Of a stretch of 64,000 nucleotides of DNA, positions 19,226-58,173 are shown piece after piece. The notes under the pieces were generated by a model that searched no databases, was not told the origin of the DNA, and saw nothing but the letters and a program-made list of their open reading frames with translations. The position numbers and the translations under genes are program-made. Numbering within the stretch: position 1 is the stretch's first letter; the number at the start of each line of letters is the position of its first letter. Source of the stretch: Patescibacteria group bacterium (lineage in GTDB: Bacteria > Patescibacteriota > Microgenomatia > UBA12405); assembly GCA_023380755.1 (NCBI GenBank), contig JAMCSD010000006.1, positions 39,841-103,840 on the forward strand, in the 5' to 3' direction.

Positions 19226-19317
19226 AACTTAATGAAGAATAAGACCATAGGATGGGCTAATCTATAGTCGTTGATTATTACCGTGTTAGTCGTTCGTTAG
19301 CTGTTCAGCTTGTGAGA

Positions 19318-20451: not shown

Positions 20452-20453
20452 TT

Positions 20454-20639
20454 ATGAATAATAAAGTTACTATACTTGGAGAGGTAATTACCAAAAAAGA
20501 TTTACCTAAGCTCTATAAATGGGCCAAAGAAAACCCCGCAACCTTAGTGGAACAACTTAAAAGCATTGCCGATAAATGGCATGAAGGCAACATTCGGTCA
20601 GCTTTAATCGCTTTTGAAATGGATTTAGAAAGAATATGA
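20454..20639 (+). CDS. hypothetical small protein
   Basis: ATG 20454 is preceded by aggaaaagga; the track ORF starts earlier at 20421. Confidence 0.4.
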   Translation: MNNKVTILGEVITKKDLPKLYKWAKENPATLVEQLKSIADKWHEGNIRSALIAFEMDLERI

Positions 20640-21647: not shown

Positions 21648-21721
21648 TTACAAACCTACAGGCTGATTCTAAGTGGTAAGATATAAGCAGTAATTAGAGA
21701 GAAAATTAATATTACAAATAC

Positions 21722-24793: not shown

Positions 24794-24796
24794 TAT

Positions 24797-27642: not shown

Positions 27643-27647
27643 AAAAT

Positions 27648-28193: not shown

Positions 28194-28222
28194 AAGTATG
28201 GAGGTCATTCTAAAGGAAGATT

Positions 28223-29743: not shown

Positions 29744-31541
29744 TCCACCCAATCTATTTAAAGGCATCGTCTGTATAAGTAATAACTATTTGTATTCCGC
29801 CCAAATATCGAGTTGTTTCAATAAAGGAAAGTCGTATTTTGTTGTTCTGGAGCCACCAAGGACATTACATAAATATTGGGCAAACGAGTTCCCTATGCTA
29901 AATAATATAATCGCTAGAATAAGGCCGAGAACAATAATATTTTCCAAAGTTGACCAAAAAATAATTGACCAATTCAAAGAGCACTTAAAATTACCAGAAG
30001 GTAGATACCTCTACATTAACAACAAAGATCAGCTAAATCTATTTTTAAGAACATTTAAATCATCAACTAATGGCAGTCTGAAATGTCCTCCATCAAGAAT
30101 TAAGGTCACTTATGCATTACTAGAAGCAAAAAGACGTAATCTTCAGTTAGTTATTGACTCAAAGTCAACATACAAAATTAATAAGAACCAATCAAGCAAA
30201 CACATTATTGTATCTGATACTTTGGTAAATGTACTACCATGCCTTTTAGCAAATTACGCTTTTTCAATAGATGCAGATATTCGCGTAAGTAAAGTAGATT
30301 TAAAATACGAACCACAAGAAATAATTAGTATATTAGATGGCTCAAGAATAAAAGACAAAAGAGGAAGGGCTGCTCGAGAAATCACGAAAAGCATTGTTGC
30401 TGAAATTCAAAGCAAGTTAAGTTTCCTGAAAATATACGACTTTGTTTCTTTCTTCATAGATGATTTTCCTTACGGATATTTTTTTCCCGACAAACCGTCA
30501 ACTCATATTTACAACAAATCGTTACCAAGTCATTTCTTGGCAAAGTCAATTTCGGCAAAAGGTATTCATTTGCAATCTGCTCTATTAGTGGATACAGGCT
30601 TTTTCGAAAATTCGGAGACAGAGATTATCAATTTACAATTGCAAAGAAAAAATGTGGTTACTAAAGTCTTGGAAGGTAACAAATTTACAAATTTAGAACT
30701 AAGTAAGAATGTACAATTTTTACCATATGACTTTTTGTCCATCTGTAGTCATGGAGGTTTTCCTGAGGGTGTTCGTTTTAAAGTCAAATTCAAAGATAAA
30801 AATTGTTGTGATCATGTAATTGTCATAGATACTATTGACTCATTTTTCCCAACTAATAGAGGAGAAGGGGATAACAGAATAATCGATGTTCAAACATTTT
30901 ATGAATTTGTTGAACTTGACGGAAAACCCTGGTTTGAAAAGGAGTATAAACCGGGATCGTCTAAGACCTTGGTGGAAGATTTCTTGGCAATTGGGAGAGA
31001 TCATTGGCAGGTTGTCGAAAAACAAAAAGTATTTATGAGACATTGTAATGTAATTGAAACACAGGACAAACTCGGACCTTATGTTCCTATGATTCACAGT
31101 ATTTCCGATGTCTTTTCCACTCCTTTTATCTTTAACAATTCGTGTAGTTCAACTTATACACTTTCAAGTAATTTTTTATTTGCTGGCTCTATCGCTTATA
31201 TAGGTACAGTAAATTCTGTAGGAACTATAAGTGCTGTAAAAGTTGCGGAAATGTTTGCACAAAAAGCCATTTGCGAAGAGAAACCTATCGCACTATCGTT
31301 GTGGGAGTCTGTAAGTGAATTAAATATAGTGCCAAAATATAGAGTCTATGTTTGCTTTGGATGTCATTTTAATAAATTTTTCTTTTCCATTACTGATAAC
31401 AAATTAAATCTAAAAAAAAGGATAAGGATAGAAGCTTATATGAGAAAACAAAGAATTAACGATCAAAATATGGAAGATAGTGTAAAAATAAGACACTCAG
31501 AAGCAATAGACTTTCTATTTGATGAATATCAACGAATCTAA
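29703..31541 (+). CDS. hypothetical protein with a tentative C-terminal CHAT/caspase-fold-like region
   Basis: 612 aa; DFLSICSHGG (His350, nt 30750-30752) and PFIFNNSCSS (Cys481, nt 31143-31145), followed by NFLFAGSIAYIGTVNSV. This parallels the CHAT pattern HfagHG ... lvvLsaC.s ... afl.aGa..vigtlw.v. The His-Cys spacing (131 aa) is longer than is usual. Confidence 0.45.
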   Translation: MSFLNPTYSPTFFDPPNLFKGIVCISNNYLYSAQISSCFNKGKSYFVVLEPPRTLHKYWANEFPMLNNIIARIRPRTIIFSKVDQKIIDQFKEHLKLPEGRYLYINNKDQLNLFLRTFKSSTNGSLKCPPSRIKVTYALLEAKRRNLQLVIDSKSTYKINKNQSSKHIIVSDTLVNVLPCLLANYAFSIDADIRVSKVDLKYEPQEIISILDGSRIKDKRGRAAREITKSIVAEIQSKLSFLKIYDFVSFFIDDFPYGYFFPDKPSTHIYNKSLPSHFLAKSISAKGIHLQSALLVDTGFFENSETEIINLQLQRKNVVTKVLEGNKFTNLELSKNVQFLPYDFLSICSHGGFPEGVRFKVKFKDKNCCDHVIVIDTIDSFFPTNRGEGDNRIIDVQTFYEFVELDGKPWFEKEYKPGSSKTLVEDFLAIGRDHWQVVEKQKVFMRHCNVIETQDKLGPYVPMIHSISDVFSTPFIFNNSCSSTYTLSSNFLFAGSIAYIGTVNSVGTISAVKVAEMFAQKAICEEKPIALSLWESVSELNIVPKYRVYVCFGCHFNKFFFSITDNKLNLKKRIRIEAYMRKQRINDQNMEDSVKIRHSEAIDFLFDEYQRI

Positions 31542-32491
31542 TTAGAAGTTACTTCTCTCTTCAGCTTTTGAACATATTCCTTAAAAACATCATGCATTCT
31601 TGAACTAGATTCAATTAAGAAGGAAATCATTTTTGGCCAATCAGACTCATTGAAAATATCTACTCCGGTCAATTCTGCTTTTATTCTGGAAGTTACACGA
31701 TCCTCCATTCTTTCCCAAATCAAAGGTTTACCGAATTTCAATTCAATATCTTCCTTTGATTTCACAAAAAAATCAAAAATCTCTTTGTTCTTAGTAACTT
31801 CTCCCTTGTTTATATATATTTCTGAACGAGCATAGGTACTAGTTGCAACAAGATTCAAACTTACACCAGAATAACCTAACGCTATACCGAGCCAAGCATC
31901 ATTAGTCGGATTCAGATTTTGGCACAATCTATTGTTTTTATTCATAGCTTCAATCAATTTTGTCCAGAATTCTCGTCTGACAGTAAATCTTCTTGCTGAA
32001 TCTTTTTTTTCAGCTCCGACTTTCTTCATTTCTACAGTAGGTCTCTCAACTACAGTAAAAAGGGGAGCAACTGACTCTTGCCCCTCAATTTTAATTCCTT
32101 CTACTTTAACCAAATAAAAATACATATTATCTGGCGTCGTCTCATTAAGCCATTCGACAACCTGTCGATGTTCTTCAGTGGGTTTTGCTGTTACCCAGAT
32201 AGCTATATTTGCGTCAAGGTTTACTAAATACGTGATAATTTGACCCAAATGAGTATGGTCAGTTTTTTCAAGTTGATTCTCAATAATTACTTTATTTCCA
32301 AATCCATCCTCCCCGTAAATATCTACTCGATATGGACCAACGTTTTCTTCAACCGCCTGGACAGAAATATCTAGGTCAATAATTTCATTCAGGTAGTCAA
32401 TGTTATTCGCCAACCACTTAGTAAAATCAGCAGCTTCATTTTTCCAAATATTTCGCAGGTCAACTTTTTGAATTTTATTAATTACGGGCAT
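31538..32491 (-). CDS. PD-(D/E)xK-like nuclease N-domain plus DUF4268-like C-domain protein
   Basis: 317 aa; YRVDIYGEDGFGNKVIIENQLEKTDHTHLGQIITY...IAIWV...EHRQVVEWLN matches my recollection of the DUF4268-containing family often found beside R-M genes. Confidence 0.55.
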   Translation of the reverse strand: MPVINKIQKVDLRNIWKNEAADFTKWLANNIDYLNEIIDLDISVQAVEENVGPYRVDIYGEDGFGNKVIIENQLEKTDHTHLGQIITYLVNLDANIAIWVTAKPTEEHRQVVEWLNETTPDNMYFYLVKVEGIKIEGQESVAPLFTVVERPTVEMKKVGAEKKDSARRFTVRREFWTKLIEAMNKNNRLCQNLNPTNDAWLGIALGYSGVSLNLVATSTYARSEIYINKGEVTKNKEIFDFFVKSKEDIELKFGKPLIWERMEDRVTSRIKAELTGVDIFNESDWPKMISFLIESSSRMHDVFKEYVQKLKREVTSN

Positions 32492-32556
32492 TACTGAATC
32501 GTAATTGTTTTAACAATATCCAATGATACCACTAAAATCCAATATAGGGCGAAAAT

Positions 32557-33060
32557 CTACGGCATAAACATATATCCGTATTCATCGCTTGGTCCAAAGT
32601 AGTGAGATTTGTTCAGAAGAGTATCTGCTAATTCCCAAGCAGTCATATCCTCCGAAATCCTATAACTCGCTACAACATCTATCGAACCATTTGTCCCGAC
32701 TGCTAAAGCTCCCGGATTGCCTTGGGTTGTATCTTTGGTATGCTCCAAAGCATACATAAATGCCTTTTCACTTCTAATGAAACCGTAGTATTCGAGATTG
32801 CTTATTATCGCTTCCAAAGTTGAACCGCTACCCGGTCTGAAATCCACTGTTTCGCTTTGCTTCTGTCGTTCCAAATCGCTTTGAGTAAATCGTAATTTCT
32901 CCACAAAGTAATCTTCAACTTTTTTGGGCGACTGCCAACTTTTACCTGGGGCTTTAAAATCGTCTTCCGGTATTTTGGGAGCCTGTTTTTGCCATAACAC
33001 CGCACCCAATCCTACTACCATCATCACTACCAAAATCGGAAATACTATTTTCATATTCAT
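32557..33060 (-). CDS. hypothetical membrane-anchored/secreted protein
   Basis: The likely start is MNMKIVFPILVVMMVVGLGAV (signal anchor); the track ORF extends to 33117. Confidence 0.45.
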   Translation of the reverse strand: MNMKIVFPILVVMMVVGLGAVLWQKQAPKIPEDDFKAPGKSWQSPKKVEDYFVEKLRFTQSDLERQKQSETVDFRPGSGSTLEAIISNLEYYGFIRSEKAFMYALEHTKDTTQGNPGALAVGTNGSIDVVASYRISEDMTAWELADTLLNKSHYFGPSDEYGYMFMP

Positions 33061-33134
33061 GACTAATTCTACTGCATATAAGAGAGTTATTGTCTTAGTA
33101 TGCCTGCAAACACACAAAATGGTACTATCTTTGT

Positions 33135-33902
33135 ATGAAACAAATCATTATCAATGAAGATGAGTATGACGAATTATTTAGTAAGGCAGCGAAAATTGTT
33201 CAAGAAACCCAAAAAGCCAGTGCTTCCTTAATCCAGAGAAAATTTAATATCGGTTATGCTCGTTCTGCTAGATTACTGGATGAACTTGAACACGCCGGTC
33301 TAGTTGGACCTTCAAGAGGAGCCAAACCACGAAAAATACTTATTCCCAAAGAAGAAGAAATTAAAGTTAAAAAAATTAGGTCCAAGGCAAATGACACGGT
33401 ATCAGCTAATGTTGTCGCTGAGAAATACAAAGAGAAACATGGTAATTATGTCAGGAAAATTGCTGCCGTTATTGAGCAGACTTTGAGTAGTTTCGGTATT
33501 ACTGCTCGTGTAGCTGAAGTAAACAACCGGCCCAATGATATTGAGTACTGCATAGAAATTGCCCTTGGTACTCGAACAGCAGATATTTTAGCTTTAGAAA
33601 ACGATATTGCTTTGGCACTAGCTTGCCCACCTGAGTTTTTAGTTATCGAAGCACCTATTCCGGGTCGATCCTTAATTGCTATCCGAACCCCATATCCTAA
33701 CTATGAGAATATAGAACCGACAAAATTATTACCGCCCCCCGAAGATAAGAAAGATGAGTTCCCCGATATAAAAAGAGATGATTTTGAAAATACTTGGATG
33801 AAAATAAGAGCTTACCTTAGTTTTGTGTTTTATCTTATCGCCCGATTATTTAACGTCATTGCTAATTTTATTTATCCCGAACGAAAACAAGATATTTCCT
33901 GA
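33135..33902 (+). CDS. FtsK-related protein lacking the motor: gamma (wHTH) domain, then alpha-like domain, then a C-terminal TM helix
   Basis: SASLIQRKFNIGYARSARLLDELEHAGLVGP is the FtsK gamma pattern. IEQTLSSFGITARVAEVNNRPNDIEYCIEIALGTRTADILALENDIALALA...IEAPIPGRSLIAIRTP is the FtsK_alpha pattern. No Walker A is present, and the hydrophobic tail is YLSFVFYLIARLFNVIANFIY. Confidence 0.6.
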   Translation: MKQIIINEDEYDELFSKAAKIVQETQKASASLIQRKFNIGYARSARLLDELEHAGLVGPSRGAKPRKILIPKEEEIKVKKIRSKANDTVSANVVAEKYKEKHGNYVRKIAAVIEQTLSSFGITARVAEVNNRPNDIEYCIEIALGTRTADILALENDIALALACPPEFLVIEAPIPGRSLIAIRTPYPNYENIEPTKLLPPPEDKKDEFPDIKRDDFENTWMKIRAYLSFVFYLIARLFNVIANFIYPERKQDIS

Positions 33903-34027
33903 TAGAAAATTAAGTTTTTCATAGCACAAACTTTACATTTCTCCCACTACGTTCCATATCTCCATGATGGCGGGGAGCCATCTTTCGCTAAAGCTTCAGA
34001 TGGCTTCGCCTATCGAAGCCGTCAACA

Positions 34028-34303
34028 ATGATGTTTTATACCTATATTCTCCAAAGTTCAAAATCTCACCATTTTTATTACGGTCACACCAAAGACTTAA
34101 AATCACGTTTTACGCTTCATAATTCCGGACAAGTACCATCAACTAAACCATATTTGCCATGGAAACTCGTTTGGTACTGTGCCTTTGAAACATTAAACCA
34201 AGCAAAAGATTTTGAACTTTATCTAAAAAGTGGTTCCGGCAAAGCCTTTGCCTTCAAAAGGTTAATTTCTGTAGCTTTGGCGAAAAATGCTAAACTCAAG
34301 TAA
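34028..34303 (+). CDS. GIY-YIG nuclease superfamily small protein
   Basis: 91 aa; FYTYILQS...FYYGHTKDLKSRFTLHNSG...PWKLVWY..F (GIY ... YIG ... R ... N pattern). Confidence 0.75.
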   Translation: MMFYTYILQSSKSHHFYYGHTKDLKSRFTLHNSGQVPSTKPYLPWKLVWYCAFETLNQAKDFELYLKSGSGKAFAFKRLISVALAKNAKLK

Positions 34304-34336
34304 TCCCAGGTGATCCGTAGCCGAAGGCGAAGGACA

Positions 34337-34351
34337 CCACGCAGGGGAGCA
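34337..34351 (+). repeat. degenerate copy of the tRNA-Asn 3' end (candidate attR-side scar)
   Basis: ccacgcAggggagc-a versus the tRNA ccacgcGggggagcCa (16157-16171). Confidence 0.4.
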
Positions 34352-34378
34352 TATTAAAAATAGGAGAAACAGAGACTT

Positions 34379-35095
34379 TTAAAACCTCCAAGGTTCCATC
34401 ACTTTTTCTTTATCAAAGCCTAGATCCAACATTATTTTCTGGCAATCGTTTTGAATTTCCAAAAGTAAGGTAATTATCTCATCAGATGACGTTTTCAGGT
34501 TTAATAGGGCAAGCTCATTAATCTTTTCTACGTCAAATAGCTTCTCTTTTTCAATCATATACCATCTCCATTTTTGTGGTGGTATGGTCTTGTTTTGATA
34601 TAAGTAAATAAACTTACTTAATGAATCTAAAATATTTGACAAAACAATATGTCCACCGATAATTTGCTTTCTTTTCAAACACTTTTCTAGATCGTAATGT
34701 AAATACAATTTTGAATAATTATTCCAAAGTAAACCAGTCTTATCGATTCCTTCTAAATTATTTCTTGCCTTTTCTAATAACTTCCTGCATTCATTTTTCG
34801 GATCGTAAATGATGATTGCTTTCTCAATAATCCAAGCTTGTTCCGAGTCTAATGTTAGGTTATTAAACAACCAATCCGACATCATTTCATCAACCTCTAT
34901 CTTCAAATTTGAAACCTTATACTGTTTCATAGGTTGGCTTTTGTGGTCTTTGTCAACAAGGATTCGGATATCAATATCTGTAAATCCATCTTTAATTCCA
35001 AAGCTCGAAGAACCAATCCATAGTATTCCAACTAAATCCGGATAATTGCAGTATTTAACCGACTCATTTCTGGCAATTTCTTCATATGTATACAT
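34379..35095 (-). CDS. nucleotidyltransferase-domain protein (Pol-beta/KNTase-like fold)
   Basis: 238 aa; VGILWIGSSSFGIKDGFTDIDIRILV (G-S ... D-x-D NTase signature); AT-rich. Confidence 0.55.
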   Translation of the reverse strand: MYTYEEIARNESVKYCNYPDLVGILWIGSSSFGIKDGFTDIDIRILVDKDHKSQPMKQYKVSNLKIEVDEMMSDWLFNNLTLDSEQAWIIEKAIIIYDPKNECRKLLEKARNNLEGIDKTGLLWNNYSKLYLHYDLEKCLKRKQIIGGHIVLSNILDSLSKFIYLYQNKTIPPQKWRWYMIEKEKLFDVEKINELALLNLKTSSDEIITLLLEIQNDCQKIMLDLGFDKEKVMEPWRF

Positions 35096-35274
35096 ACCTA
35101 GGATAATACAGCGTTTTAATTTCTTTGGAAGTTAACAGTATAAACCATAGAAAAAACCTTATTATATTTTTTCCTGATGTTTTCCATCTCCGAGTGCAAA
35201 AATATTGATCCCCAAAATTTTCTTTATGATCCATTACGCCGGTACGAATCCCTCTTTTGCTATAATTCCTTTCA

Positions 35275-35955
35275 ATGATTGATCAGGAATTACAGGAGTT
35301 TAAGCAAAAACTAGTAAAGCAAAATAAGCCAGGTTTAGTCTTGGATATTGATGAAACTTTATCGTGGACCGTCTCTTATTGGGTAGAACAATTACAACAA
35401 CGCTTTGGCAATCCCGAGAATTTGTCGATTATCGAAATCATCGCCAAGTACAAATACGCCCAGAATGTGCCTTATTGGCAGTCAAAAGAAGCCCAAGATT
35501 GGATGGAAGCGGCTCGGGAAAGTAATGCTTTCCAGGAGAATCTACCCCTTATTGAAAATTCAAATAATATTGTTGAACGTATTAATAAAATTGTTCCCAT
35601 TGTTGGTTACTTAACCATTCGGCCTCGCAAGGTTATCCCCGGAACACAACGATGGTTACAAAAACACCGCTTTCCTCAAGTTGATATTTTAGCCCGACCC
35701 AACACCATCCCCAGCGCTGATGGCAACAAATGGAAAGCCGCAGTCCTTAATTTCCTTTACCCGCAAATAATCGGCATCATCGACGACAACCCCGCCGTTG
35801 TCAGCCTCTTGCCCCCGGATTACGCCGGCCGAATTTATCTTTACGACAGCGATGTTGCCCCCGCAGGGAAAATAACAGTTTTCCCCTGCAAAACCTGGTC
35901 CGACGTTTACACCCAAGTTAAACAGTCTTTCCTGGCGAAACAACAGAACCCTTAA
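35275..35955 (+). CDS. HAD-superfamily hydrolase-like protein
   Basis: LVLDIDETLSW (DxDxT motif I) and a late GIIDDNP (motif IV-like). Confidence 0.5.
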   Translation: MIDQELQEFKQKLVKQNKPGLVLDIDETLSWTVSYWVEQLQQRFGNPENLSIIEIIAKYKYAQNVPYWQSKEAQDWMEAARESNAFQENLPLIENSNNIVERINKIVPIVGYLTIRPRKVIPGTQRWLQKHRFPQVDILARPNTIPSADGNKWKAAVLNFLYPQIIGIIDDNPAVVSLLPPDYAGRIYLYDSDVAPAGKITVFPCKTWSDVYTQVKQSFLAKQQNP

Positions 35956-36246
35956 GTCTAAAATCTTTCCACTCTTCGAGCAAAACGGAACTAGAGTGTG
36001 TGTATTTCATACCTCGCAGAATTAGATTGATCGTGAATTCCGGGTCTCCAAACTCCCAGAACACCCGAAGCTAAAATGGAAAAGACGGTGAGCATCAAGA
36101 CAGATAATATGACCTTAGAACGAGGCATGGGCGAGAAAGGGGCAGTTGTTATTTTTGACCTGAATAAATATTGGAATATCCGAACGAAAGAGCTGGTTGT
36201 TCCTCTCCCTTTGCAATAAGACGAGATCAACAATATCAAACGCACC

Positions 36247-44083: not shown

Positions 44084-45898
44084 TTAAACCACCAACACTT
44101 CGGTAAATCTTTTGTCCTCACTTAATCCTTTCCTGATCATCTCTTCTTCTTCCGGACTTAAGTCCTTAATTAAAATTCTGAGCTCAAAGTCCTCTTTATC
44201 GTTATCTTGGGCAATATGGATAATATTTTTATTCGTATTGCTGATCAACTGGACGACGTCAACCAATATTTTAGGCCGGTCTTTTCCTTTTAGTTTAATG
44301 CTGGTTAACCCGAGAGCCTCCTTCGTTATTCCCGCTTCATCCAGTTCTTTTTCGATCAGTGATTGCTTAATAAAGCCGTTTCCCACCATAAAATACAAGT
44401 CATCTGCCCCCTGGCAGCCTAATTTATACAACACCGGATTTATAGAATCCCCCAAGTCGGTCAGCACCAGCAAACCCCGCGGCCGCAGTACCCCCTCGAT
44501 TACTGCCTGCCCGTTTTTAATTAAAATATCTTTCCTTTGTAATCTTCTTTGTTCCAGAATTACTTTTCTGGTTTGCGGCAAACAATAATCTTCAGTCTCG
44601 GCCAACGGTGCCCGGCGGACCTCGCCTAAATTTACCCGCACCGTACTGGCATTGGGGATGACATATGTTAACGGTTTTTCCTGGCCGTCGACCGAAATTG
44701 AATTTGCTTCGGCTAAAACTCTTAAGTTGATCATCAACGCAAAATCAACCCCCGTCGCATTTTTGGGCAAAAACCTAATACTGCCGGTGGGGGTAAACAC
44801 AAATTTCAACACGTAATCTCTTAAATCCACATTGCCCTTTTTGATTAAACTGATCACTCCCCATCGGTTAAATCTTTCCATCTCGTCAGTCACTAACACT
44901 ATTTCTACCGGGCCTTGGGAAAAGTTAATTGTGGTTTGCAATGCTTCATAGCCGTTCATTCTTTTATTGGCGCCGATAAACTCATCAAAACGCTCGTAAT
45001 CCACCATCTCTCCAAAACTCTCATGGATTACCCTCAACATTTTGTAACAATCATCCGGTGAGCCTAATTGCACCCGAAAACTCACCAAATCGTTAATATC
45101 ATTAAAATTGTCCGGATTGCCTTTTCCCCGGATGGATAACTTTTCTTGCTTTTCCCTAAGTGTCCAGTAACCGTTTTTTCTCACTTCTACCTTTCCTCCG
45201 TCGATGTTGTTTTCCCCCAATAATTGTTCCAGCCGGCTTTGGACGTTACAGCTAAAAAAGGGGTTTAATCTGGGATCCGAATCAGCCAATTGTTTTGTCC
45301 TTTTGTAGCCATCGAGGTCTAAATACTGGAAACACCAATCCTCCAACTCGGTTTTTACCTGCCACATCCCCAATGATTCGGCCAGACGGGTATACACATC
45401 CAAAGTTTCTGAGGCTTTTTCCACCTGTTTTTCCGGGCTGACAAATCCTAAGGTCCTCATATTGTGCAGCCGGTCTGCCAGTTTGATGATCGCCACCCCG
45501 GGGTTTAAGTATGTTTTGCTTAAGACCTTTTTCAGTGTTTCCAGGTCATTGCTGGTTTGCAGTTTGGTTACTCCGTCGACCAGCTCCACCACCCCCTCTC
45601 CGAACTCCGCCTGAATTTGCTTTAAGGTTACTTTGGTGTCTTCCACAGTGTCATGCAGCAGGGCAGCCGCCAGATAATCGTCGTTGGTGATTCCCCATTC
45701 GTTGACTAATATTTTTAGGACTTCAACACAGTGGCTAAAATAGGGTTCCCCGGATTTCCTTTTAATACCGTCATGTGATTTTGATGCCAGATTATAAGCC
45801 GCCACCAGTTTCTCGGAATTAAATTCGATGTCTCCAATACTTCCACCAAAACTTATCACTTCCGGGAGCATTTGCAGTGATTTTACACCATTTTTCAA
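44084..45898 (-). CDS. RelA/SpoT homologue ((p)ppGpp hydrolase HD domain plus synthetase-like, TGS-like and ACT-like regions)
   Basis: HD domain SGEPYFSHCVEV...LLHDTVEDT...ADRLHNMRTL. The synthetase-like region has diverged motifs (NGYEALQT, VEIVLVT instead of GYqSlH, vEvQIRT). Confidence 0.8.
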   Translation of the reverse strand: MKNGVKSLQMLPEVISFGGSIGDIEFNSEKLVAAYNLASKSHDGIKRKSGEPYFSHCVEVLKILVNEWGITNDDYLAAALLHDTVEDTKVTLKQIQAEFGEGVVELVDGVTKLQTSNDLETLKKVLSKTYLNPGVAIIKLADRLHNMRTLGFVSPEKQVEKASETLDVYTRLAESLGMWQVKTELEDWCFQYLDLDGYKRTKQLADSDPRLNPFFSCNVQSRLEQLLGENNIDGGKVEVRKNGYWTLREKQEKLSIRGKGNPDNFNDINDLVSFRVQLGSPDDCYKMLRVIHESFGEMVDYERFDEFIGANKRMNGYEALQTTINFSQGPVEIVLVTDEMERFNRWGVISLIKKGNVDLRDYVLKFVFTPTGSIRFLPKNATGVDFALMINLRVLAEANSISVDGQEKPLTYVIPNASTVRVNLGEVRRAPLAETEDYCLPQTRKVILEQRRLQRKDILIKNGQAVIEGVLRPRGLLVLTDLGDSINPVLYKLGCQGADDLYFMVGNGFIKQSLIEKELDEAGITKEALGLTSIKLKGKDRPKILVDVVQLISNTNKNIIHIAQDNDKEDFELRILIKDLSPEEEEMIRKGLSEDKRFTEVLVV

Positions 45899-45988: not shown

Positions 45989-46444
45989 ATGGCTTTAAAG
46001 GAATTAGTTGGCAGTGGGGAGAAAATCATGCTCGTTACCCTACCCTTACTGGTCATCGGCTTAATCTTAAATTATTTATATCCTTCAGTCTTTGCCGTCG
46101 GTGGTTCGCCCGCAGTGGTCAACACCGTAGCTGTCCTCTTTTTGATTCCTGGTTTAATCATTTGGTTTTGGTCAGTGGCCCTGGTTTTAATTCATGTTCC
46201 TCACCAAAGATTAATCACTACTGGCCCCTATGTCTTAGTCCGCCATCCTTTATATACCGGTTTTGGCTTGCTGGTATTGCCCGCCGTCGGCCTGCTTCTA
46301 AATTCCTGGTTAGGCCTTCTTTTGGGGCTCATCGTTTATGGCGCCTCTCGGCTCTTTTCCCCGGAAGAGGAAAAGCATTTATCCCGCCTTTTTGGTACCC
46401 GTTGGGATGATTACCGCCGCGGGGTCAAAATTCCTTGGTTATAA
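45989..46444 (+). CDS. isoprenylcysteine carboxyl / phospholipid methyltransferase family membrane protein
   Basis: LITTGPYVLVRHPLYTG and EEEKHLSRLFGTRWDDYRRGV are ICMT/PEMT family signatures. Confidence 0.7.
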   Translation: MALKELVGSGEKIMLVTLPLLVIGLILNYLYPSVFAVGGSPAVVNTVAVLFLIPGLIIWFWSVALVLIHVPHQRLITTGPYVLVRHPLYTGFGLLVLPAVGLLLNSWLGLLLGLIVYGASRLFSPEEEKHLSRLFGTRWDDYRRGVKIPWL

Positions 46445-46484
46445 ATTTACGCCAGAAATCTTAGCTGTCCGCTATACTTCTCTC

Positions 46485-46913
46485 ATGGACCACCCCCATC
46501 CTCGTATTGGTGTCGGTGTCTTCGTTTTTAAAAATGGCCGATTCCTCATGGGTTGCCGTCGGGGTTCCCATGGCTCGGGCAGTTGGTCTGTTCCTGGTGG
46601 CCACCTGGAGTTTGGCGAAACCATTGAAACGGCTGCCAAAAGGGAAGTCAAAGAAGAAACCAACCTGGAAATCTCCCGCCTAAAAATTGCCGGTGTCACC
46701 AACGACATCTTTGAAAGTGAAGGTAAACACTACCTTACCATTTGGGTCACTAGCTTTTGGCAGAGCGGTACTCCCCGCATTATGGAGCCCGACAAATTCA
46801 TTGATTTGGACTGGTACAATTTTGATACCTTGTCCTCCAATCTCTTTTTACCCTGGCGCCAACTTTTCGAATCTGATTTTCTTTTGACCATTAAAAATTT
46901 GTTGGCTAGCTAG
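46485..46913 (+). CDS. NUDIX hydrolase
   Basis: Nudix box GGHLEFGETIETAAKREVKEETNL; the start is moved to ATG 46485 (the track ORF overlaps the upstream gene). Confidence 0.8.
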   Translation: MDHPHPRIGVGVFVFKNGRFLMGCRRGSHGSGSWSVPGGHLEFGETIETAAKREVKEETNLEISRLKIAGVTNDIFESEGKHYLTIWVTSFWQSGTPRIMEPDKFIDLDWYNFDTLSSNLFLPWRQLFESDFLLTIKNLLAS

Positions 46914-51504: not shown

Positions 51505-53337
51505 ATGTCCAAGGAAAAAGCTACACTTTTCCATACCGAAAAATTAACGTTACTGCCCGGTATTACTGTTCAGGGTCCCCTAGGCCTAGATTTCTTTCAG
51601 GCTGATTCTGCCTCTCACCCTAAACTGGCCCGCGAAGCTGCCGCCCGCCGCCATCTTTATGATCTAACCAAAGCCGTCTTAGATGACAGCCAACCTTTTA
51701 ATAACCCCACCCTTTTAACCGAATTGTATCAACATCTGACCACTTTCTTGGCCGCCGATGATCTTCACGGTCGCCTTCTGCTTTATCTACCCGAAAAACT
51801 ATTGCCCGACACCCACCAGCCCGCCAAAACCACTGCCCTCCGTCAATCGGAAATGGCTTTTGTGGCTCAATATCAACAGAGTTGGCTCCGCCTCCTTTTT
51901 GAAAGTAACTCCCGAGCTGCCTTTGTTGACGGCGATGTTCTGGAGCCAGGCTTGGGTGAACCGCCCACTGTCCGCAAGGCCGCCCACCTCCTTCCCGATA
52001 TTTTGGCTCATGGCCTTGTCCCGCTTGGTGACATTGCCGACCTTTACCGCTTTTGTGATGATCCGGAATTGGTCCAGTCTTTATCCGAGGGCCTGATTGT
52101 GGCTGCCGACCACGGCCTGGTTAGTCCCGACTTTCTTCATCATCTGGGCATCGAAATCCCACCAGTAACCACCGCCGATAACACCCCTAATTCTCCAGAT
52201 CCCCTCGATTATCTTCGCCAATCCTTAATCCAAATTGATCTCCGCTATTCTCCCGGTTCACCTTTCATTTCTCATTGGAGCCCGGCCCGGATTAAATGGG
52301 ATCAGCAGGTCCAGCGCGATGCGGCTATCAACCGAACCGCCGAAATCCTCTCCCAACGTCTGATTTTGACCCCTCATTCCACGGCGGCTATTGATACTTT
52401 ATTTACCCAGCGTGGTTATGACCATGCTTATACCCTCGTCGCTTTAAAAGGCCTCTTTCTTGCCGGCCAAAATGTTTCCGCCATTGTCGATACCTACTTA
52501 CCGCTTATCACCAATCTTTGGTCGGCGGCTCCCCCCACGGAAATCAAAAATTCGATTGCCAGTGGTCTAAACCATTGGGCCCGGCTCGGTTTAGTTTCTC
52601 CTAACTTGCTTCATCATTTAAATATCCCTTATCCTGATTTGGCTTCCCCTCTGCCGGTTAGCCCCCGGGAACTGTTTACTGGTGAATTCCGGTATTTAAC
52701 TGATGTCGTCCAGACCATACACCGGGATCCCCAATTATCCACTCTCTTTTACCCGGCCATTTTGGTATTCGGCTCTCGCGTCAAAGGTATTGCTGATTTG
52801 GCCGCCGATCACGATTTAGCCGTATTTTTAAAGCCCGACACCCCTTGGAGTCAGCGTCAGCCGGCCTTGGCTCTTCTCAAAGAAAAAAATCCCTCTTTAA
52901 ATCGCCTCGACAAAATCCTGGAATATTGGGTCTCTCAAAAAGATGGTCAGCTTGGCCTAAAACCCGTCCCCGAGGGCACTACCACTGTCGCTGGTCCCGG
53001 AGAAATCCATTTCTTAATAGACGGTTTTTGGATTGGCGCCCAGGGGGGCTACGAAACTCTTTACGCCCATCTCGCCCAAAAGTATTTAGATCTCAGCCGC
53101 TTTGGTGATCAAAAATCCGCCGTCCGTTCCCAGCTTTTGCACAAACTCGAGCTTGACCTGCTGCAGTTCCGCTTAATGCACAAAGGCTATCGCCGCTTTT
53201 ACCCCACCGCCCGGCCGGTCAATGCTCCTCATGCCGCCCTGATTGATGGCGATAGTGATTTTTGGGACCCCGGGTACCGCCGCATTGCCACTCTCCTCTT
53301 TCTTAGCCGGGTCTTTTTACCGGATATCTCGGCATAA
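51505..53337 (+). CDS. large hypothetical protein with a C-terminal minimal nucleotidyltransferase domain
   Basis: 610 aa; ILVFGSRVKGIADLAADHDLAVFL (GS-x9-11-D-x-D Pol-beta-type NTase signature); the N-terminal ~400 aa are unrecognised. Confidence 0.55.
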   Translation: MSKEKATLFHTEKLTLLPGITVQGPLGLDFFQADSASHPKLAREAAARRHLYDLTKAVLDDSQPFNNPTLLTELYQHLTTFLAADDLHGRLLLYLPEKLLPDTHQPAKTTALRQSEMAFVAQYQQSWLRLLFESNSRAAFVDGDVLEPGLGEPPTVRKAAHLLPDILAHGLVPLGDIADLYRFCDDPELVQSLSEGLIVAADHGLVSPDFLHHLGIEIPPVTTADNTPNSPDPLDYLRQSLIQIDLRYSPGSPFISHWSPARIKWDQQVQRDAAINRTAEILSQRLILTPHSTAAIDTLFTQRGYDHAYTLVALKGLFLAGQNVSAIVDTYLPLITNLWSAAPPTEIKNSIASGLNHWARLGLVSPNLLHHLNIPYPDLASPLPVSPRELFTGEFRYLTDVVQTIHRDPQLSTLFYPAILVFGSRVKGIADLAADHDLAVFLKPDTPWSQRQPALALLKEKNPSLNRLDKILEYWVSQKDGQLGLKPVPEGTTTVAGPGEIHFLIDGFWIGAQGGYETLYAHLAQKYLDLSRFGDQKSAVRSQLLHKLELDLLQFRLMHKGYRRFYPTARPVNAPHAALIDGDSDFWDPGYRRIATLLFLSRVFLPDISA

Positions 53338-54756
53338 CATTTTTTCCCAACTTTCCCGAAAGCTTCGGTCCGAGGCCAATGGCCCCCGGGCCACCGCCAC
53401 CACCGGCAGTCCTAATTTCTCCTCCACGTAACCCAAAAAGACCTCTTCCAGCGTTTTCCCCTTTTCTGGTATTAGTACTTTTAGTATCGGCTCACATTGC
53501 TTTAGTAATTGGGTTAATTCTAACTGGTGCTGATATCTAGCCTTTTCGTCTTTGCTCGGATTAAATTTAATTCCTATAATAAGGCCATTTTGTATTTCAA
53601 AATAATCTTCCAGATTCTTCTGGTTTCCCTTATATTGATAAGATTCGCATACCGGCCATTCGCTTTTATCAGCTAACTTGTCTAAGTAGCTAATCATTAA
53701 ACCATTGACCGGTTGCTGCCGCCCGCTTACTTTGAGGGAATAATTTAACGCCACACTGTCATAAAATCCGTTCTGAAACTCCCCATACCAATCACTACTG
53801 GCACTATTGTGCGTCTCCCCAATTGACCGGGTTAATTCCGGTGAGTAACTGACAAAAGGTGCCTTCCCTCCGTGCCGGGTTAGGTAGCAGCGGCTCACGC
53901 CGAGGTGCACTCTTTCCCCTTGGTAAAGATGGCGATCCAGCAGTGTAGCTACCGGCCCGGGGGTCGGGTCAACCTGAGTTCCGTACGGAGCATAGCCCCA
54001 GCGGGCATCTAATAATGTCCCGTGTGAGGACTCACAAACCATCACCCCCCGCCGTTGTAATAATTCACTCAAATAACGCTCATCAGTTATTTCCACCAAA
54101 TCAGCCAAATACTTAAACGATTGTACTACTAGTGGTCCGATTTCCTTGTCGCCTAATACCGCCAATTCTGCTTCGGCTTCTGTTGTCACTTGGCCTTTAC
54201 CTATTTGGCTTACAATTTCTTGCGCCTGTTCGAGTTTCCGTAAGCGGATGGCTTCTACTTTAGCCAGCAACGCCCTTTCTTCCTCCCGAAATTCCCGTAC
54301 CCGAATACTAATCGTGGGGTCATCGGCATCCCGCAGGGCATCTCCGACCCCTTTTCCCACTGTCCCTTTCTTATCGTCACCCCGCATAATTTCCCGAAAC
54401 CGGCTAATTGCCCCATGATAAGGCGTCGTCACTAAACATGATTCATCAAGGGTAATCAGCGAGAGAGGATTCGCCACTCCTTTACCTTCGATCTGCATTG
54501 CTTCCTCAAACAAATCGGCCGGGCTTATCACCATTTGGTTGAGATACGTCGGCACGCGGTTAAAAGTCCCGCTGCTAAAATGGCTAAACATTTGCTCCCG
54601 ACCATCCCCGGTGACAATAAAATGCCCCGCCTGCCAACCGCCTTTCCGCCAAATCGTATGGGCGTTTAGCTGGTTAGCCAACCACTCCACACAGGCGCCT
54701 TTTGTTTCTTCGCCGGTGGCCAATCCGGTCACAAAAACAAATTCTTTTTTATTCAT
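53317..54756 (-). CDS. divergent adenylosuccinate synthetase (PurA)-like protein
   Basis: It aligns by eye to remembered E. coli PurA. TGEETKGA corresponds to GDEGKGK, KGGWQAGHF to QGGHNAGHT, GTVGKGVGDA to GTTGRGIGPA, and ESSHGTLLDARWGYAPY to EGAQGTLLDIDHGTYPY. The Arg-rich GATTGRRRR segment has no counterpart. The start is taken at MNKKEF (54756); the track starts at 54801. Confidence 0.55.
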   Translation of the reverse strand: MNKKEFVFVTGLATGEETKGACVEWLANQLNAHTIWRKGGWQAGHFIVTGDGREQMFSHFSSGTFNRVPTYLNQMVISPADLFEEAMQIEGKGVANPLSLITLDESCLVTTPYHGAISRFREIMRGDDKKGTVGKGVGDALRDADDPTISIRVREFREEERALLAKVEAIRLRKLEQAQEIVSQIGKGQVTTEAEAELAVLGDKEIGPLVVQSFKYLADLVEITDERYLSELLQRRGVMVCESSHGTLLDARWGYAPYGTQVDPTPGPVATLLDRHLYQGERVHLGVSRCYLTRHGGKAPFVSYSPELTRSIGETHNSASSDWYGEFQNGFYDSVALNYSLKVSGRQQPVNGLMISYLDKLADKSEWPVCESYQYKGNQKNLEDYFEIQNGLIIGIKFNPSKDEKARYQHQLELTQLLKQCEPILKVLIPEKGKTLEEVFLGYVEEKLGLPVVAVARGPLASDRSFRESWEKMLCRDIR

Positions 54757-54925
54757 AATTCCTTTCGTCCTTAAACTACCCGCCAATTGCGGGGGACTCA
54801 TCAGACTCGATTATATCGAGTGAGGAATCGCAGCCCGGCGAAGACTTTAGAAGGGAAACCTTCTTGAATCTTCGCCGGTGTTAAGCTGCCGCTTAAACTA
54901 CTGCTTTTGCAAGAGAGTAGTTATT

Positions 54926-56092
54926 CTAAAACTTACCCCAGTCCATGCCGCCTTTCTTGGTCTTTGGCGTTACCGCCTTACCGGGTGTCAACCGCGCTGT
55001 GGTCGGTTTATCCGGTACGGGGTTTTCCGCTGACCTTGGGTGGCCAATAGGCCATGGGTTACGCAGATCTGAAAACACATCACCTGGCTTGGGGATCGAC
55101 TTATAGCCGGGCAGTTTTACCTGGGCCCCAAAGTGCTCTCGCGCCTCCTGCAGCCATCCCCAAACTTGACTCACCCCAGCCTTGGTGATCCGCTTGTTCG
55201 CTCCTTCGACCGTCAGGAATTCGACCAGACCTTCCAGAGTTGGTTGTAACGTTTCCGTGACGTAAATCAAGCCGGCCTGCACCTCTGCCAGGTACTCTGG
55301 ATCGGTGACCTTCACCACTCGGCCGGTTCCTAGCACCTCGGTCCACCATTTTGTGGTGTGGGAGTGGAGCTCTCCGCCGTAAGCGACTTGCACATAAAAG
55401 ATGTGCCACTGAGTTAGGAGCTGGGCACATATCGCCTTCGTCGTCATTCGCTTTTGCCACTCCTGCCCCAGGTGCTCCTGGACATCTGCCTGGGTCACTT
55501 CACCGCGGCCAATTTCATCAGCTACGATCGACACGTATCCCTTTAGGCCGTAAAACGGGAAAATATCAGTATCCACACCCACCATCAGGTAAGCTAAGCC
55601 TAAGTCGTAGTCTTCTGTAGCATCACCGCCGCCGTGGTCAGGAACCAACAATCGGATCTGTTCGGCAATCCGTACATCAGACTCGAATTGGGTCATTTGG
55701 ACCACCGGGTGCGGGTCGCAAACGTCCTGCCAGACAGCACTTGCTACTTGGGTGTTGTACCGCCGCCGCAGCACATCAAACATCTTATCCATCGCCGGAA
55801 TTGCTTCAAAAGCCTTGCCCACCAGGGAGCCCATCGAACCGGTCCCATCGAAAGCGCCGACAATTGGCAGGGCAATTCCATTCTTCAGCACAAATCGTTC
55901 ACCGTCGCGCTCCATACTGTTATGCGACACCCGGCGTTTCCCTTTGATGTCCGCGTTCGGATCTAGTTTTCCCGTCTCCCGGAAAATCCTTTCGCCTTTG
56001 TCATGGACGGATTCTCGTGCCTCTCGCATCCGGCGAACCGTCTCGTCGTATTTGGCGCTGTTAAAAGTTGATGTATCTCCCTTTCTGCCCAT
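54926..56092 (-). CDS. von Willebrand factor A (vWA) domain protein
   Basis: 388 aa; MIDAS-like VGAFDGTGSMGS (DxTGS variant of DxSxS) after an N-terminal extension of about 80 aa. Confidence 0.55.
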   Translation of the reverse strand: MGRKGDTSTFNSAKYDETVRRMREARESVHDKGERIFRETGKLDPNADIKGKRRVSHNSMERDGERFVLKNGIALPIVGAFDGTGSMGSLVGKAFEAIPAMDKMFDVLRRRYNTQVASAVWQDVCDPHPVVQMTQFESDVRIAEQIRLLVPDHGGGDATEDYDLGLAYLMVGVDTDIFPFYGLKGYVSIVADEIGRGEVTQADVQEHLGQEWQKRMTTKAICAQLLTQWHIFYVQVAYGGELHSHTTKWWTEVLGTGRVVKVTDPEYLAEVQAGLIYVTETLQPTLEGLVEFLTVEGANKRITKAGVSQVWGWLQEAREHFGAQVKLPGYKSIPKPGDVFSDLRNPWPIGHPRSAENPVPDKPTTARLTPGKAVTPKTKKGGMDWGKF

Positions 56093-56096
56093 GATT

Positions 56097-57056
56097 TCAC
56101 CTCACAAATGGATAGCTGACGAACACATGGAATGGCCGTTTCGTCTGCCGTTTGCCGTTGAAGACAAACGACTCTTTTGGCCAGATCCGGTTAGCCATTT
56201 CATAAATGGCTTCAAACTCATCACTGGCCCCGGTTGTCTTTCCTGTCATAATCCTGGCCAGAAAATTGACGTACTCCTCATAACCACTCCGTGGCATTAC
56301 CCCGGCATCAAAAGGTGGCTTTTTTACATTAGTTCCTCCCGCCGCATACCAGGCTAAGCCGGCTGCTCGCTTGACCTCCTCACGCTTCTCTTCGTCACCC
56401 GGCTCTTCCATCGCCGCCGAAAAATCCAGTAAAAATACCCCATGGACTTCGGTTTCCAGCAACAAGTTGCCCGGCTCGATATTCCCTTGGGAATAACCCA
56501 CAGCGTGGACAAAATCCAACACCTTTAAGAGTTTGCCCAAAATCCACTGGACGGTCGCCAAATCGACTCGCTTGCCCTCGGTCACAATCGGTAGTGGCAC
56601 CAACTGCTTATAAGTCCGAATGCTCGGATGGTACCCTAAAAACATGGCTACTTGCTTGTCGTTGGGTTCGACTACCTCGACTACCCTGGGGAAAAAAGCT
56701 CCGTAATGCGGTGGTATTTGGTCATCGGCGACAGCATCCTCATCGGTCTGCTCGGCAATCTGCTGTAATTTTTCCAGTATCGCCACTTCGCGCCTGATCA
56801 CCTCCTGAAACCCAGGGGTATTAATTTTCATCAATCCCACCTGGTCATCCGGCATCTTGGTGACATAGAACCGGAAGGTTTCCGTTTCTACTAATGGACC
56901 CGGCGCTCCGGTGGCCCGGTCGAGGACCCCAAAAACCTCATAAGTGCCTTTCTTTCCTTCAAAACTGGACATGCTAATTAGGATAGGGTCATCCTCCTCA
57001 TCTCCCGCTACCAAGGCCCCGCCAGTCAGTGGAACCACGCTTAAACACTTTTCCAT
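56097..57056 (-). CDS. protein-kinase-fold protein with a degenerate catalytic loop (possible pseudokinase)
   Basis: Order of elements: glycine-rich EGKKGTYEV, GLMKI (Lys), REVAILEKL (Glu), GYSQGNIEPGNLLL in place of H-R-D-x-K-x-x-N, and LLDFS (DFG-like). Confidence 0.5.
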   Translation of the reverse strand: MEKCLSVVPLTGGALVAGDEEDDPILISMSSFEGKKGTYEVFGVLDRATGAPGPLVETETFRFYVTKMPDDQVGLMKINTPGFQEVIRREVAILEKLQQIAEQTDEDAVADDQIPPHYGAFFPRVVEVVEPNDKQVAMFLGYHPSIRTYKQLVPLPIVTEGKRVDLATVQWILGKLLKVLDFVHAVGYSQGNIEPGNLLLETEVHGVFLLDFSAAMEEPGDEEKREEVKRAAGLAWYAAGGTNVKKPPFDAGVMPRSGYEEYVNFLARIMTGKTTGASDEFEAIYEMANRIWPKESFVFNGKRQTKRPFHVFVSYPFVR

Positions 57057-57201
57057 TGCTTTTCGCTCCTTAATAAATACTCTCTGCGTATTTCACTACT
57101 CTTCTTTTTTAAAGAACGCCCTATCTTACTATTAGATAAGCAAAATTGCAAAAGCTTTCGGCCAAACTTGCATTTTTTTTCGCTCCTTTGTATTATCGGC
57201 C

Positions 57202-58173
57202 ATGGCTGAAATTGAGTTTTGGTCACCGCTTCAACAAAAATCTTTGTCATTGCCGGCAGGCGAACAACAGAAATACCTCCGCTTACTGGATACGGCCCGC
57301 ACTTCTACTTCGGTGGCTGATCAGTCTGGTCATCATGTCCGTGTTGCCCTCCTGACTGGCGCTGGCCAGACCTTCACCGGCGGTAATTATGAATATGCTC
57401 TTAGCGATTCCTTTGTTCATGCCGAGTCCTCCGCCTTAAATAATGTCTTAACTCAGTTTGGTCGGGTTCAGCTCGAAGCCTTGGCTTATGATGTGCCGCC
57501 TCCTATTACTCCAACCACTTTTTGTATCCCTTGTGGCCGCTGTCTTGATATTCTCTCTGCTTACGCTTCTCCAGATTTAGCCATTGTCGTTGGTGATTCC
57601 CGTCGTGTTTCTCTTACCTATTTAAAAGATTATTTATTTGCTGATTTTGCTAATGTTCCTCTTGACCGAGTTTCCCCGCGGGGCCAAGATGAGGCTGTCC
57701 TAGCCCTGAAAAGGGGAATCGATGCTTACTTGCCCGAAACCCATAAAGATCAAGTTTATGGCGTCGCCCTGGTCGGCAAAGACCAAATTTGGCGCGGCAG
57801 TCTTTACACCAACGCCTCTTATGATGCCGTGACCCCCATCTTATCGGCCATCCAAACCTGGCGTAATACTCTACCTCTTGAGCCTTATGATTACTCCCAT
57901 TTTCACCTCACCAAAGCCGTTGTGGCCAGTTTCCAACGCCCTCATATCTTTTACCGGGACCGCCAGGCTCTGACCGATCTTGATGAACTTATAAGGCTGA
58001 AATTTCCCTCACTCGGCCCCCTCCCTGTAGACATGTTACAAGTCGACTCCAAAACCCTTCGCCCCCTGCAGGCTTGGCGGACTAATGCCGCCGAGTGGCT
58101 GCCTTTTCCTTATACTCCCTCATCTTTCGGGATGCACGATACTTTGCATCAACTTCTGACGCAGCTAACTTAA
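57202..58173 (+). CDS. cytidine/deoxycytidylate deaminase-fold protein, two-domain (E. coli Cdd-like length)
   Basis: Zinc/catalytic motifs VHAESSAL (H-A-E) and CIPCGRCLDIL (PCxxC); 323 aa suggests a second, non-catalytic repeat. Confidence 0.6.
   Translation: MAEIEFWSPLQQKSLSLPAGEQQKYLRLLDTARTSTSVADQSGHHVRVALLTGAGQTFTGGNYEYALSDSFVHAESSALNNVLTQFGRVQLEALAYDVPPPITPTTFCIPCGRCLDILSAYASPDLAIVVGDSRRVSLTYLKDYLFADFANVPLDRVSPRGQDEAVLALKRGIDAYLPETHKDQVYGVALVGKDQIWRGSLYTNASYDAVTPILSAIQTWRNTLPLEPYDYSHFHLTKAVVASFQRPHIFYRDRQALTDLDELIRLKFPSLGPLPVDMLQVDSKTLRPLQAWRTNAAEWLPFPYTPSSFGMHDTLHQLLTQLT

Follow-up and report, generated by a model that had tools for sequence, protein, structure and literature searches.

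This analysis concerns 64,000 nucleotides of DNA from a Patescibacteria group bacterium (GenBank assembly GCA_023380755.1, contig JAMCSD010000006.1, positions 39,841 to 103,840), called the window from here on, and within it five adjacent genes, A to E (Table 1). An initial annotation, made from the letters alone, suspected that these five form a non-standard nucleotide-related system. For four of the five this is correct. A comparison of gene neighbourhoods across related genomes, which the annotation had proposed as a check, finds that D, C, B and A are one conserved unit and not chance neighbours. They encode a protein kinase-like fold, a vWA fold, a relative of adenylosuccinate synthetase (PurA) and a nucleotidyltransferase (NTase) core, respectively.

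Table 1. Features of the gene cluster, in window coordinates.
Feature	Position	Strand	Description
A	51505-53337	+	610 aa; NTase-core protein
B	53317-54801	-	494 aa; PurA-like; 479 aa from M16 (start 54756) in NCBI annotation
C	54926-56092	-	388 aa; vWA-fold protein
D	56097-57056	-	319 aa; protein-kinase-like fold; first gene of the operon
E	57202-58173	+	323 aa; two-domain cytidine-deaminase-like; adjacent, judged outside the module
G+C-rich hairpin, CCGGCGAAGA...TCTTCGCCGG	54835-54878	-	in the C-B gap; TATAAT-like box after it; read from sequence

All five open reading frames (ORFs) lie where they were first placed. The convergent genes A and B share 21 nt (53317-53337), C and D are 4 nt apart (56093-56096), and E, on the plus strand, diverges from D on the minus strand. 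The cluster has a GC content of 0.48-0.52, as do its flanks, so that it matches the host backbone; an island at 16-36 kb has 0.32-0.38. B, C and D do form one operon as described earlier, but the order is D>C>B on the minus strand, with the PurA-like gene last and not first.

The order D>C>B with A beside B is found in the window and in 10 Microgenomates loci. These are from Woesebacteria, Shapirobacteria, Daviesbacteria, Collierbacteria and other Patescibacteria genomes, plus an ENA contig and a 955-kb contig. A is convergent in most of them and co-directional in three (L009, L010 and L014), which means that its linkage is independent of orientation.

An exhaustive search with D yields 235 relatives, including a second clade of about 275 aa, here called D2. 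Through this clade 80 metagenome loci were gathered. At least 31 of the 80 have the order D2>C>B>X<A, where X is a further gene described below, and most of the others are short or cut off. The same order is seen in two further loci, so that about 35 Parcubacteria-type metagenome loci have the arrangement in all. One locus of the D2 type is assigned to Moranbacteria/Parcubacteria on the strength of a neighbouring DnaJ, which clusters at 90% identity with Moranbacteria proteins. The module spans the two largest groups within the Candidate Phyla Radiation (CPR), Microgenomates and Parcubacteria.

The fifth gene does not belong. E has no homologue in the related loci, not even in the closest, where B is 58% identical. 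An SDR gene and a DUF488 gene are likewise never conserved neighbours. Since none of these three recurs, the proposed grouping of five comes down to a four-gene module and one unrelated neighbour.

Some loci are arranged in unusual ways. One CPR contig (L007, 1-11210) has two tandem paralogous sets. The first of them, a phage-like triad, consists of D' at 23-466, truncated by the end of the locus, C' at 490-2037, which has an additional beta-rich domain at its C-terminus, and B' at 2039-3385. Downstream of B' come X, a small ORF and then the main D-C-B-A module. The second PurA-like gene of L007 was considered as a canonical PurA and ruled out: it comes with vWA and kinase-like partners of its own, and shows the same substitutions. 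Another locus, L006, has a distant module at 4881-9464. In it, a kinase-like protein whose N-terminus resembles a J-domain is accompanied by a C-like protein, a fragment of 304 aa similar to pyruvate kinase (PF00224) and a PurA-like protein. A cyclic nucleotide (cNMP)-binding protein and a Nudix gene are close by.

The secA gene is found near the module, 3' of A, in Woesebacteria (L001, 13164-15866), in another Microgenomates locus (L133, 11207-13906) and in Moranbacteria (L099, 115-2760). Its presence in such distant lineages suggests an old, vertically inherited chromosomal position.

The core of the module is also found in phages. A scan of the IMG/VR viral collection with the B alignment gives 27 contigs of 18-437 kb, most of them over 100 kb. 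In almost all of these a C-like vWA gene is directly upstream of the B-like gene, and 17 have a D-like gene. A collection of annotated phages contains 238 records with a B-like gene, 201 of which are Mycobacterium phages.

Phage Pleione (Bxz1 species) is a good example. Its gp265 is annotated as 'serine/threonine kinase', gp266 as hypothetical, gp267 has 88 aa, and gp268 is called 'PurA-like adenylosuccinate synthetase'. The hypothetical gp266 matches vWA profiles (1e-35 to 1e-92). B, C and D of the window match the same PHROGs as gp268, gp266 and gp265 respectively. The pair of vWA and PurA-like genes is also present in Rhizobium phage RHph_TM30 and Vibrio phage Va1. Among the loci studied here, A occurs only in the CPR.

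B is a divergent PurA-like protein, as first described: the Pfam family PF00709 covers residues 24-395 (4e-39). NCBI and JGI label B and its homologues adenylosuccinate synthetase. The thresholds for a canonical PurA equivalog are not reached, however. B scores 112.9 bits with NCBIfam NF002223 (PurA), where the cut-off is 402, and 98 bits with TIGR00184, where it is 395.55.

To compare residues, the B family was aligned to E. coli PurA using HMMER against PDB chain 1ade. The E. coli sequence used in the residue table is consistent with the 1ade alignments. E. coli numbering is used below unless noted.

Part of the active site is kept. The P-loop of the window's B reads GEETKG and retains K16. 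D333 corresponds to D374 of B, which is invariant and stands in the motif SYLD, where K331 is replaced by Y/H/F; the GP at 473-474 is also kept. This means that B has the guanine-specific Asp333 of the (T/S)KLD motif. Across all clades of PurA-like proteins that are linked to a vWA gene, K16, H41 (in most members), T239, R272 and D333 with the GP motif are retained. D13 is E31 in the window's B, and Glu in 19 of the 20 members of its clade. H41 is H60, and His in 16 of these 20. The Parcubacteria-type, paralogous (B') and viral clades retain both D13 and H41.

Other positions are replaced in all vWA-linked clades: N38 by Q, T129 by V/I/C, R143 by E/D/G, V273 by H, T301 by W/Y/F, G302 by Q/L, R303 by G, R305 by F/V/L and K331 by Y/W/C/H, while T300 is deleted. 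The window's clade also has His for Q224. Where the L-aspartate site used to be, the window's B reads DWYGEFQNG. H273, W301 and Q/L302 are newly conserved in the family.

In the published structures of E. coli PurA, T300, T301, R303 and R305 are the L-aspartate ligands. T129 and R143, the latter contributed by the second subunit, are ligands of the 5'-phosphate of inosine monophosphate (IMP), with N38 also listed. Judged by these residues, the vWA-linked PurA-like clades have kept the GTP site and lost the aspartate site, and would hold the nucleotide differently. Since the ligands of both aspartate and the IMP phosphate are gone, B is not a housekeeping PurA. The retained P-loop Lys, H41 (in most members), R272 and D333 with GP do make GTP-dependent phosphoryl transfer plausible. 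B probably carries out a nucleotide reaction of an as yet unassigned type, rather than ordinary AMP synthesis.

The resemblance to PurA (EC 6.3.4.4) is therefore one of fold, P-loop Lys, mostly H41, R272 and D333 with its GP motif. The differences are the low equivalog score, the Glu at D13 in the window's clade and the replaced ligands. In addition, B is always encoded beside a vWA gene.

The initial annotation also likened B to PurZ, which belongs to the 2-aminoadenine pathway of Z-genome phages. Repurposing of the PurA fold fits, as the ligand replacements attest, and both proteins occur in phages. The likeness to PurZ itself does not hold up. In PurZ, Ser stands at the D13 position, aromatic residues bind ATP, aspartate is still the co-substrate and ATP/dATP is used (bioRxiv 10.1101/2025.10.22.683976). 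In B the D13 position is Glu or Asp, the guanine-specific Asp is retained and the aspartate site is gone. The PurZ model NF038379 does not match the window's B, and distant relatives in L006 and L016 reach 24-28 bits against a cut-off of 300. No DatZ, MazZ or DpoZ is among the Pfam-annotated neighbours in the window and related loci.

The vWA-linked PurA-like proteins of Bxz1-like mycobacteriophages (RefSeq and PHROG, for example NC_023737.1 gene 268; phrog_1211) are labelled '2-aminooxy adenylosuccinate synthetase', a PurZ-type name. This label is probably wrong, because the PurZ signature is absent and the aspartate site is lost. A JGI metagenome protein of 700 aa, P0038, consists of a B homologue plus some 210 extra C-terminal residues with kinase-like sequence features; Pfam gives no match for this extension. 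P0038 may be a Rosetta-stone fusion, or the product of a missed stop codon.

C finds nothing in Pfam, NCBIfam or PADLOC, nor in a profile search of PDB sequences, and none of its approximately 114 homologues has a Pfam domain. Its fold is revealed only by structure prediction. An AlphaFold2 (AF2) model built from 38 homologues has a predicted local distance difference test score (pLDDT) of 90.8. The top Foldseek matches in the PDB are integrin beta I-like domains, NorD, vWF-A3, Ku80 and RGLG1. All of these are vWA domains, and the earlier assignment of C as a vWA protein is borne out. A search of BFVD with the same model matches viral vWA proteins, and PHROG 2971 matches C at 4e-16.

The metal ion-dependent adhesion site (MIDAS) of C, D82-x-T84-x-S86, is invariant in all clades, as are D123, E137, E160 and D192. 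At the C-terminus, after a disordered linker, comes the conserved tail DWxKF (54926-54970 of the window). On its sequence this tail looks like a docking peptide. The tail motif differs by clade, with Microgenomates having DWxKF, loci of the Parcubacteria type xxWL and phages xRF/xRL.

A MIDAS vWA protein as the obligate partner of an adjacent P-loop NTPase is also known from MoxR-vWA, NorQ-NorD and chelatase-type pairs, and NorD is among the best structural matches of C. The NTPase of such pairs is an AAA+ ATPase, whereas that of the module is a PurA-fold (SIMIBI-class) GTP-dependent ligase. Clustering of neighbours finds no locus with a conserved AAA+/MoxR-type gene beside C.

D was first described as having a kinase fold. 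This is right, with the resemblance confined to the catalytic loop and the DFG region. D matches the PADLOC PD-T4-6 kinase models (best 6e-6), the mad6 kinase model and PHROG 3043 'kinase' (1e-4). A profile search of the PDB gives many kinases, including CK2 and VRK1, at E-values around 0.1. The beta3 Lys (K78) and the Asp of DFS are retained, and the catalytic Asp of HRD is Gly. In every D clade examined this Asp is Gly, Ala or Asn, and the beta3 Lys and DFG-type Asp are mostly kept. For this reason D, as far as these motifs tell, is probably a pseudokinase or an atypical nucleotide-binding protein. It carries no zinc-ribbon/OB fusion; an N-terminal zinc ribbon is present in one distant relative (P0246) only.

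A is all-alpha over residues 1-400, where it has the conserved motif RAxFVDGDVLEPGLGEPxRVRKAAHL. It was first said to end in a minimal NTase domain. The Pol-beta/MNT-type core is indeed there, with invariant G423 S424, D435xD437 and E473, but it lies at about 415-485 and is followed by some 125 residues of conserved helical region. The AF2 model (pLDDT 86.7) has the same layout: a helical N-terminal part, a small alpha/beta NTase core and a helical C-terminus. A Foldseek search with full-length A gives weak helical-repeat matches only, all with E-values above 0.009.

Matches of A to Pfam Polbeta (0.005) and NCBIfam MntA (0.0015) are both under the cut-off, and NF047752 (MNT) gives 18.4 bits against a cut-off of 60. 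Some homologues of A carry PF18765 and PF01909. With the MntA of MntA-HepT pairs, A shares the hG[GS]...DxD...E core and these weak hidden Markov model matches. It differs in its length of 610 aa, its helical N-terminal part of 400 residues and its conserved helical C-terminal domain, and no HEPN partner is a neighbour of A.

The protein X has 330-460 aa; its N-terminal domain is helical, its body all-alpha, and a GIG motif stands at the C-terminus. It is co-conserved in 36 loci, and some Microgenomates loci have it too (L003, L007, L011 and L016). Pfam and PHROGs give no match. A profile search of the PDB finds a marginal resemblance (E-value 0.13) of the N-terminal helical domain to the C-terminal domain of the RNA polymerase alpha subunit.

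The surroundings of the module point towards NAD. A gene that combines Nudix and NrtR_WHD domains stands immediately upstream of D or D2, and on their strand, in 18 CPR loci and also in L112, a locus of the viral collection. NAD metabolism is controlled by NrtR regulators, which respond to ADP-ribose (PMC2330246). Between the NrtR-type gene and D/D2 there is a palindrome, TAGTGTA-N5-7-TACACTA, found within 600 bp upstream of D/D2 in 17 loci. This upstream zone makes up about 6% of the searched sequence and has 18 of the 49 palindrome matches, a roughly 6-fold enrichment. The palindrome is a candidate operator of the NrtR-like regulator. Carriers include L001, L022, L040, L057, L066, L069, L073, L076, L085 and L097, and TTGACA-type promoter boxes often come after the palindrome.

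Of 31 phage loci, 7 have NadV (NAMPT) and/or NadM-Nudix genes no more than 8 kb from the core. The order in L112 is NrtR>NadV>C>B>D. With an NrtR-type regulator upstream in many CPR loci and the phage core near NadV/NadM, a connection of the pathway to NAD/ADP-ribose or adenylate homeostasis is probable. For the NAD/ADP-ribose link, which comes from gene context, our confidence is moderate.

The window has a Nudix ORF of its own (46338-46913, plus strand), for which Pfam finds a NUDIX domain only; the profile of the NrtR-type neighbours matches it weakly (E-value 3.7e-5). A RelA/SpoT-type (p)ppGpp synthetase/hydrolase is at 44084-45898 on the minus strand. These two genes are 5-7 kb from the module. 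Neither the RelA/SpoT-type gene nor the plain Nudix gene is a conserved neighbour in other loci.

The initial annotation left open whether these genes are a nucleotide-related system or simply adjacent salvage genes. The reading preferred here is that D, C, B and A are a multi-protein module that transforms nucleotides. It is a tentative preference, which stops short of calling this reading probable. B would be the catalytic heart. It would bind GTP and, as PurA does, phosphorylate the lactam/oxo group of a purine-type nucleotide. The phosphate would then be displaced by a nucleophile other than L-aspartate, and the substrate would not be held in the way IMP is. C, a vWA protein with metal bound at its MIDAS, would be an obligate partner for B and dock either on it or on the substrate. 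It may take the place of the second subunit of PurA, the source of the lost Arg143. D would be an ATP-binding kinase fold that lacks the catalytic base, acting as a regulator or a non-canonical transferase. A, as an MNT-type nucleotidyltransferase added in the CPR only, could nucleotidylate a partner protein or the product. The pathway as a whole would serve NAD/ADP-ribose or adenylate homeostasis.

This can be made more specific, at the price of becoming rather doubtful. The vWA and PurA-like proteins may be an obligate two-protein enzyme of an undescribed kind, shared by the CPR and large phages, the classic Bxz1-like mycobacteriophages among them. It would aminate or ligate a purine- or NAD-related nucleotide at the expense of GTP and without aspartate. 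The pseudokinase would be its nucleotide-sensing regulator. Such an enzyme might re-aminate a 6-oxopurine nucleotide directly, bypassing PurB. It might also repair or rebuild an adenylate- or NAD-derived metabolite under the control of ADP-ribose, through NrtR.

Several observations weigh against a nucleotide-transforming module. In 4 of the 20 members of the window's B clade H41 is replaced, and D13 is Glu there, so PurA-type chemistry may be altered or lost in some members. In a neighbour-joining tree with midpoint rooting, the vWA-linked PurA-like proteins are not one clade, nor are they resolved from canonical PurA, which is why the shared substitutions are relied on instead. The argument for a physical interaction of B and C comes from gene linkage alone. 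X is absent from the 64-kb window. An adjacent NrtR gene together with an operator-like palindrome is found in related CPR loci, and the window has neither near the cluster. Finally, the closeness of NadV/NadM in phages could reflect a general clustering of auxiliary metabolic genes.

Other explanations have to be weighed against this one. That B is simply a very divergent housekeeping adenylosuccinate synthetase of the CPR, with C, D and A as unrelated lineage-specific genes, would agree with the database labels, and CPR proteins are often very divergent. The score of B far below the NCBIfam cut-off, the four-gene synteny across two CPR superphyla with a core conserved in phages, the replacement of the L-Asp and IMP-phosphate ligands in all clades, and the two paralogous vWA/PurA-like sets side by side in L007 all tell against it. 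Synteny and lost substrate ligands contradict this explanation, and it is very improbable. A signalling or conflict module is a different matter, although we still think it unlikely. Here C and D would sense a signal (metal, peptide or infection) and switch effectors, B and in the CPR also A, which would change or drain a nucleotide pool. Phages would use such a module for counter-defence, and the CPR would have a domesticated version of it. The idea goes back to the resemblance between a vWA gene next to a kinase-fold gene and the TerY-P triad (PMC11090510), which the initial annotation also noted. C does have the MIDAS of such a vWA protein, its gene stands in an operon with other enzymes, and the core is carried by many large phages, a mobile context. 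The phage copies adjoin NadV/NadM, genes that phages use to reconstitute NAD against NADase immunity (PMC9503650), and D matches the defence-system kinase models mentioned above. However, the triad as set out in PMC11090510 requires a vWA protein, a PP2C phosphatase and an active Ser/Thr kinase. PP2C is present in none of about 130 loci: no such gene is in the window or in the Pfam annotations of related loci, and clustering of neighbours gives no recurrent phosphatase family. The initial remark that no phosphatase is present was accurate, then, and the TerY-P analogy itself fails. No clade has the catalytic Asp of the kinase fold, D lacks the zinc ribbon/OB fusion, the third constant partner is a PurA-like ligase, and the PADLOC TerY-P models do not match anything in the module. 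PADLOC is also blank for A, B and C. The CPR cluster has a backbone-like composition, and SecA nearby in distant lineages suggests vertical inheritance, not a defence island.

The module could also be a protein-modification machine, in which B, D and A are three activating enzymes that act on a substrate recruited by a peptide-binding vWA protein. Their activities would be GTP phosphoryl transfer, pseudokinase-type adenylylation and MNT-type AMPylation respectively. The substrate would be X in most CPR loci, and possibly a small protein like gp267 in phages. MNT-type NTases such as MntA are indeed known to AMPylate proteins, and A has a weak match to the NCBIfam MntA model. The conserved GIG motif at the C-terminus of X, across its 36 loci, would suit a substrate. 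So would the 88-aa gene between the vWA and PurA-like genes of Pleione, and C has its conserved, clade-dependent docking-type tail. It is established, and restated in PMC9503650, that vWA MIDAS domains bind acidic peptide ligands. Against this, B is homologous to PurA over its full length and keeps most of the nucleotide pocket (T239, R272), and X is missing from the window and from several Microgenomates loci. We know of no precedent for a PurA-fold enzyme that acts on proteins. A machine of this sort is a good deal less believable than a signalling module, and we regard it as quite unlikely.

The module appears not to have been described before. Searches of the literature, jumbo-phage and NAD-ADPr comparative-genomics surveys included, turn up no description of a vWA/PurA-like/kinase-like module, and phage records name its genes by similarity only.

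The CPR make up a large share of bacterial diversity, lack de novo nucleotide synthesis, and have conserved lineage-specific genes that mostly lack an assigned role. A unit of four to five genes in Microgenomates and Parcubacteria, with its core in large phages, points to an unrecognised step in the nucleotide or NAD economy that both of these host-dependent entities need. Cultivable Mycobacterium smegmatis phages carry the core (gp265-268 of Pleione/Bxz1), which makes it directly testable by genetics and biochemistry. For metabolic reconstructions, the 'adenylosuccinate synthetase' of the CPR and the 'PurA-like' or '2-aminooxy adenylosuccinate synthetase' of phages should not be counted as a capacity for AMP synthesis or as PurZ.

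Some features of the window are of secondary interest. The gap between C and B is 124 nt when measured from the longer ORF of B, and 169 nt if B starts at M16 as in the NCBI annotation. Other Microgenomates loci also have this gap, at 64-205 nt; in the Parcubacteria-type and phage loci the genes abut or overlap. The strong hairpin in the gap (Table 1) may be a putative attenuator or internal promoter region, going by its sequence. Rfam finds no RNA family in the cluster, hairpin included.

E was first described as a two-domain cytidine-deaminase-like protein, and its translation agrees. The N-terminal domain has the HAE and PCGRC motifs, the latter of the PCxxC type. Pfam dCMP_cyt_deam_1 (PF00383) matches at 3e-7 and PF08211 weakly, PRK09027 aligns to residues 24-247, and the NCBIfam and PDB matches are to cytidine deaminases. 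E thus has the features of a two-domain cytidine deaminase of the E. coli Cdd type. Its scores are under the equivalog cut-offs, which leaves the exact substrate uncertain.

Further away, the window has a low-GC island at 16000-36000, with a GC content of 0.32-0.38 against 0.46-0.50 elsewhere. It starts beside a tRNA gene (16097-16168). At 20081-20200 it has a LOOT RNA (Rfam RF03000, 69.7 bits), and large plus-strand ORFs of 1023, 537, 411, 506 and 612 aa form a run in it. This looks like an integrated element or island. GC skew on the plus strand is negative in almost every 2-kb bin, at about -0.1 to -0.23 outside the island, whatever the orientation of the genes. The AT skew of the window is mostly negative as well.

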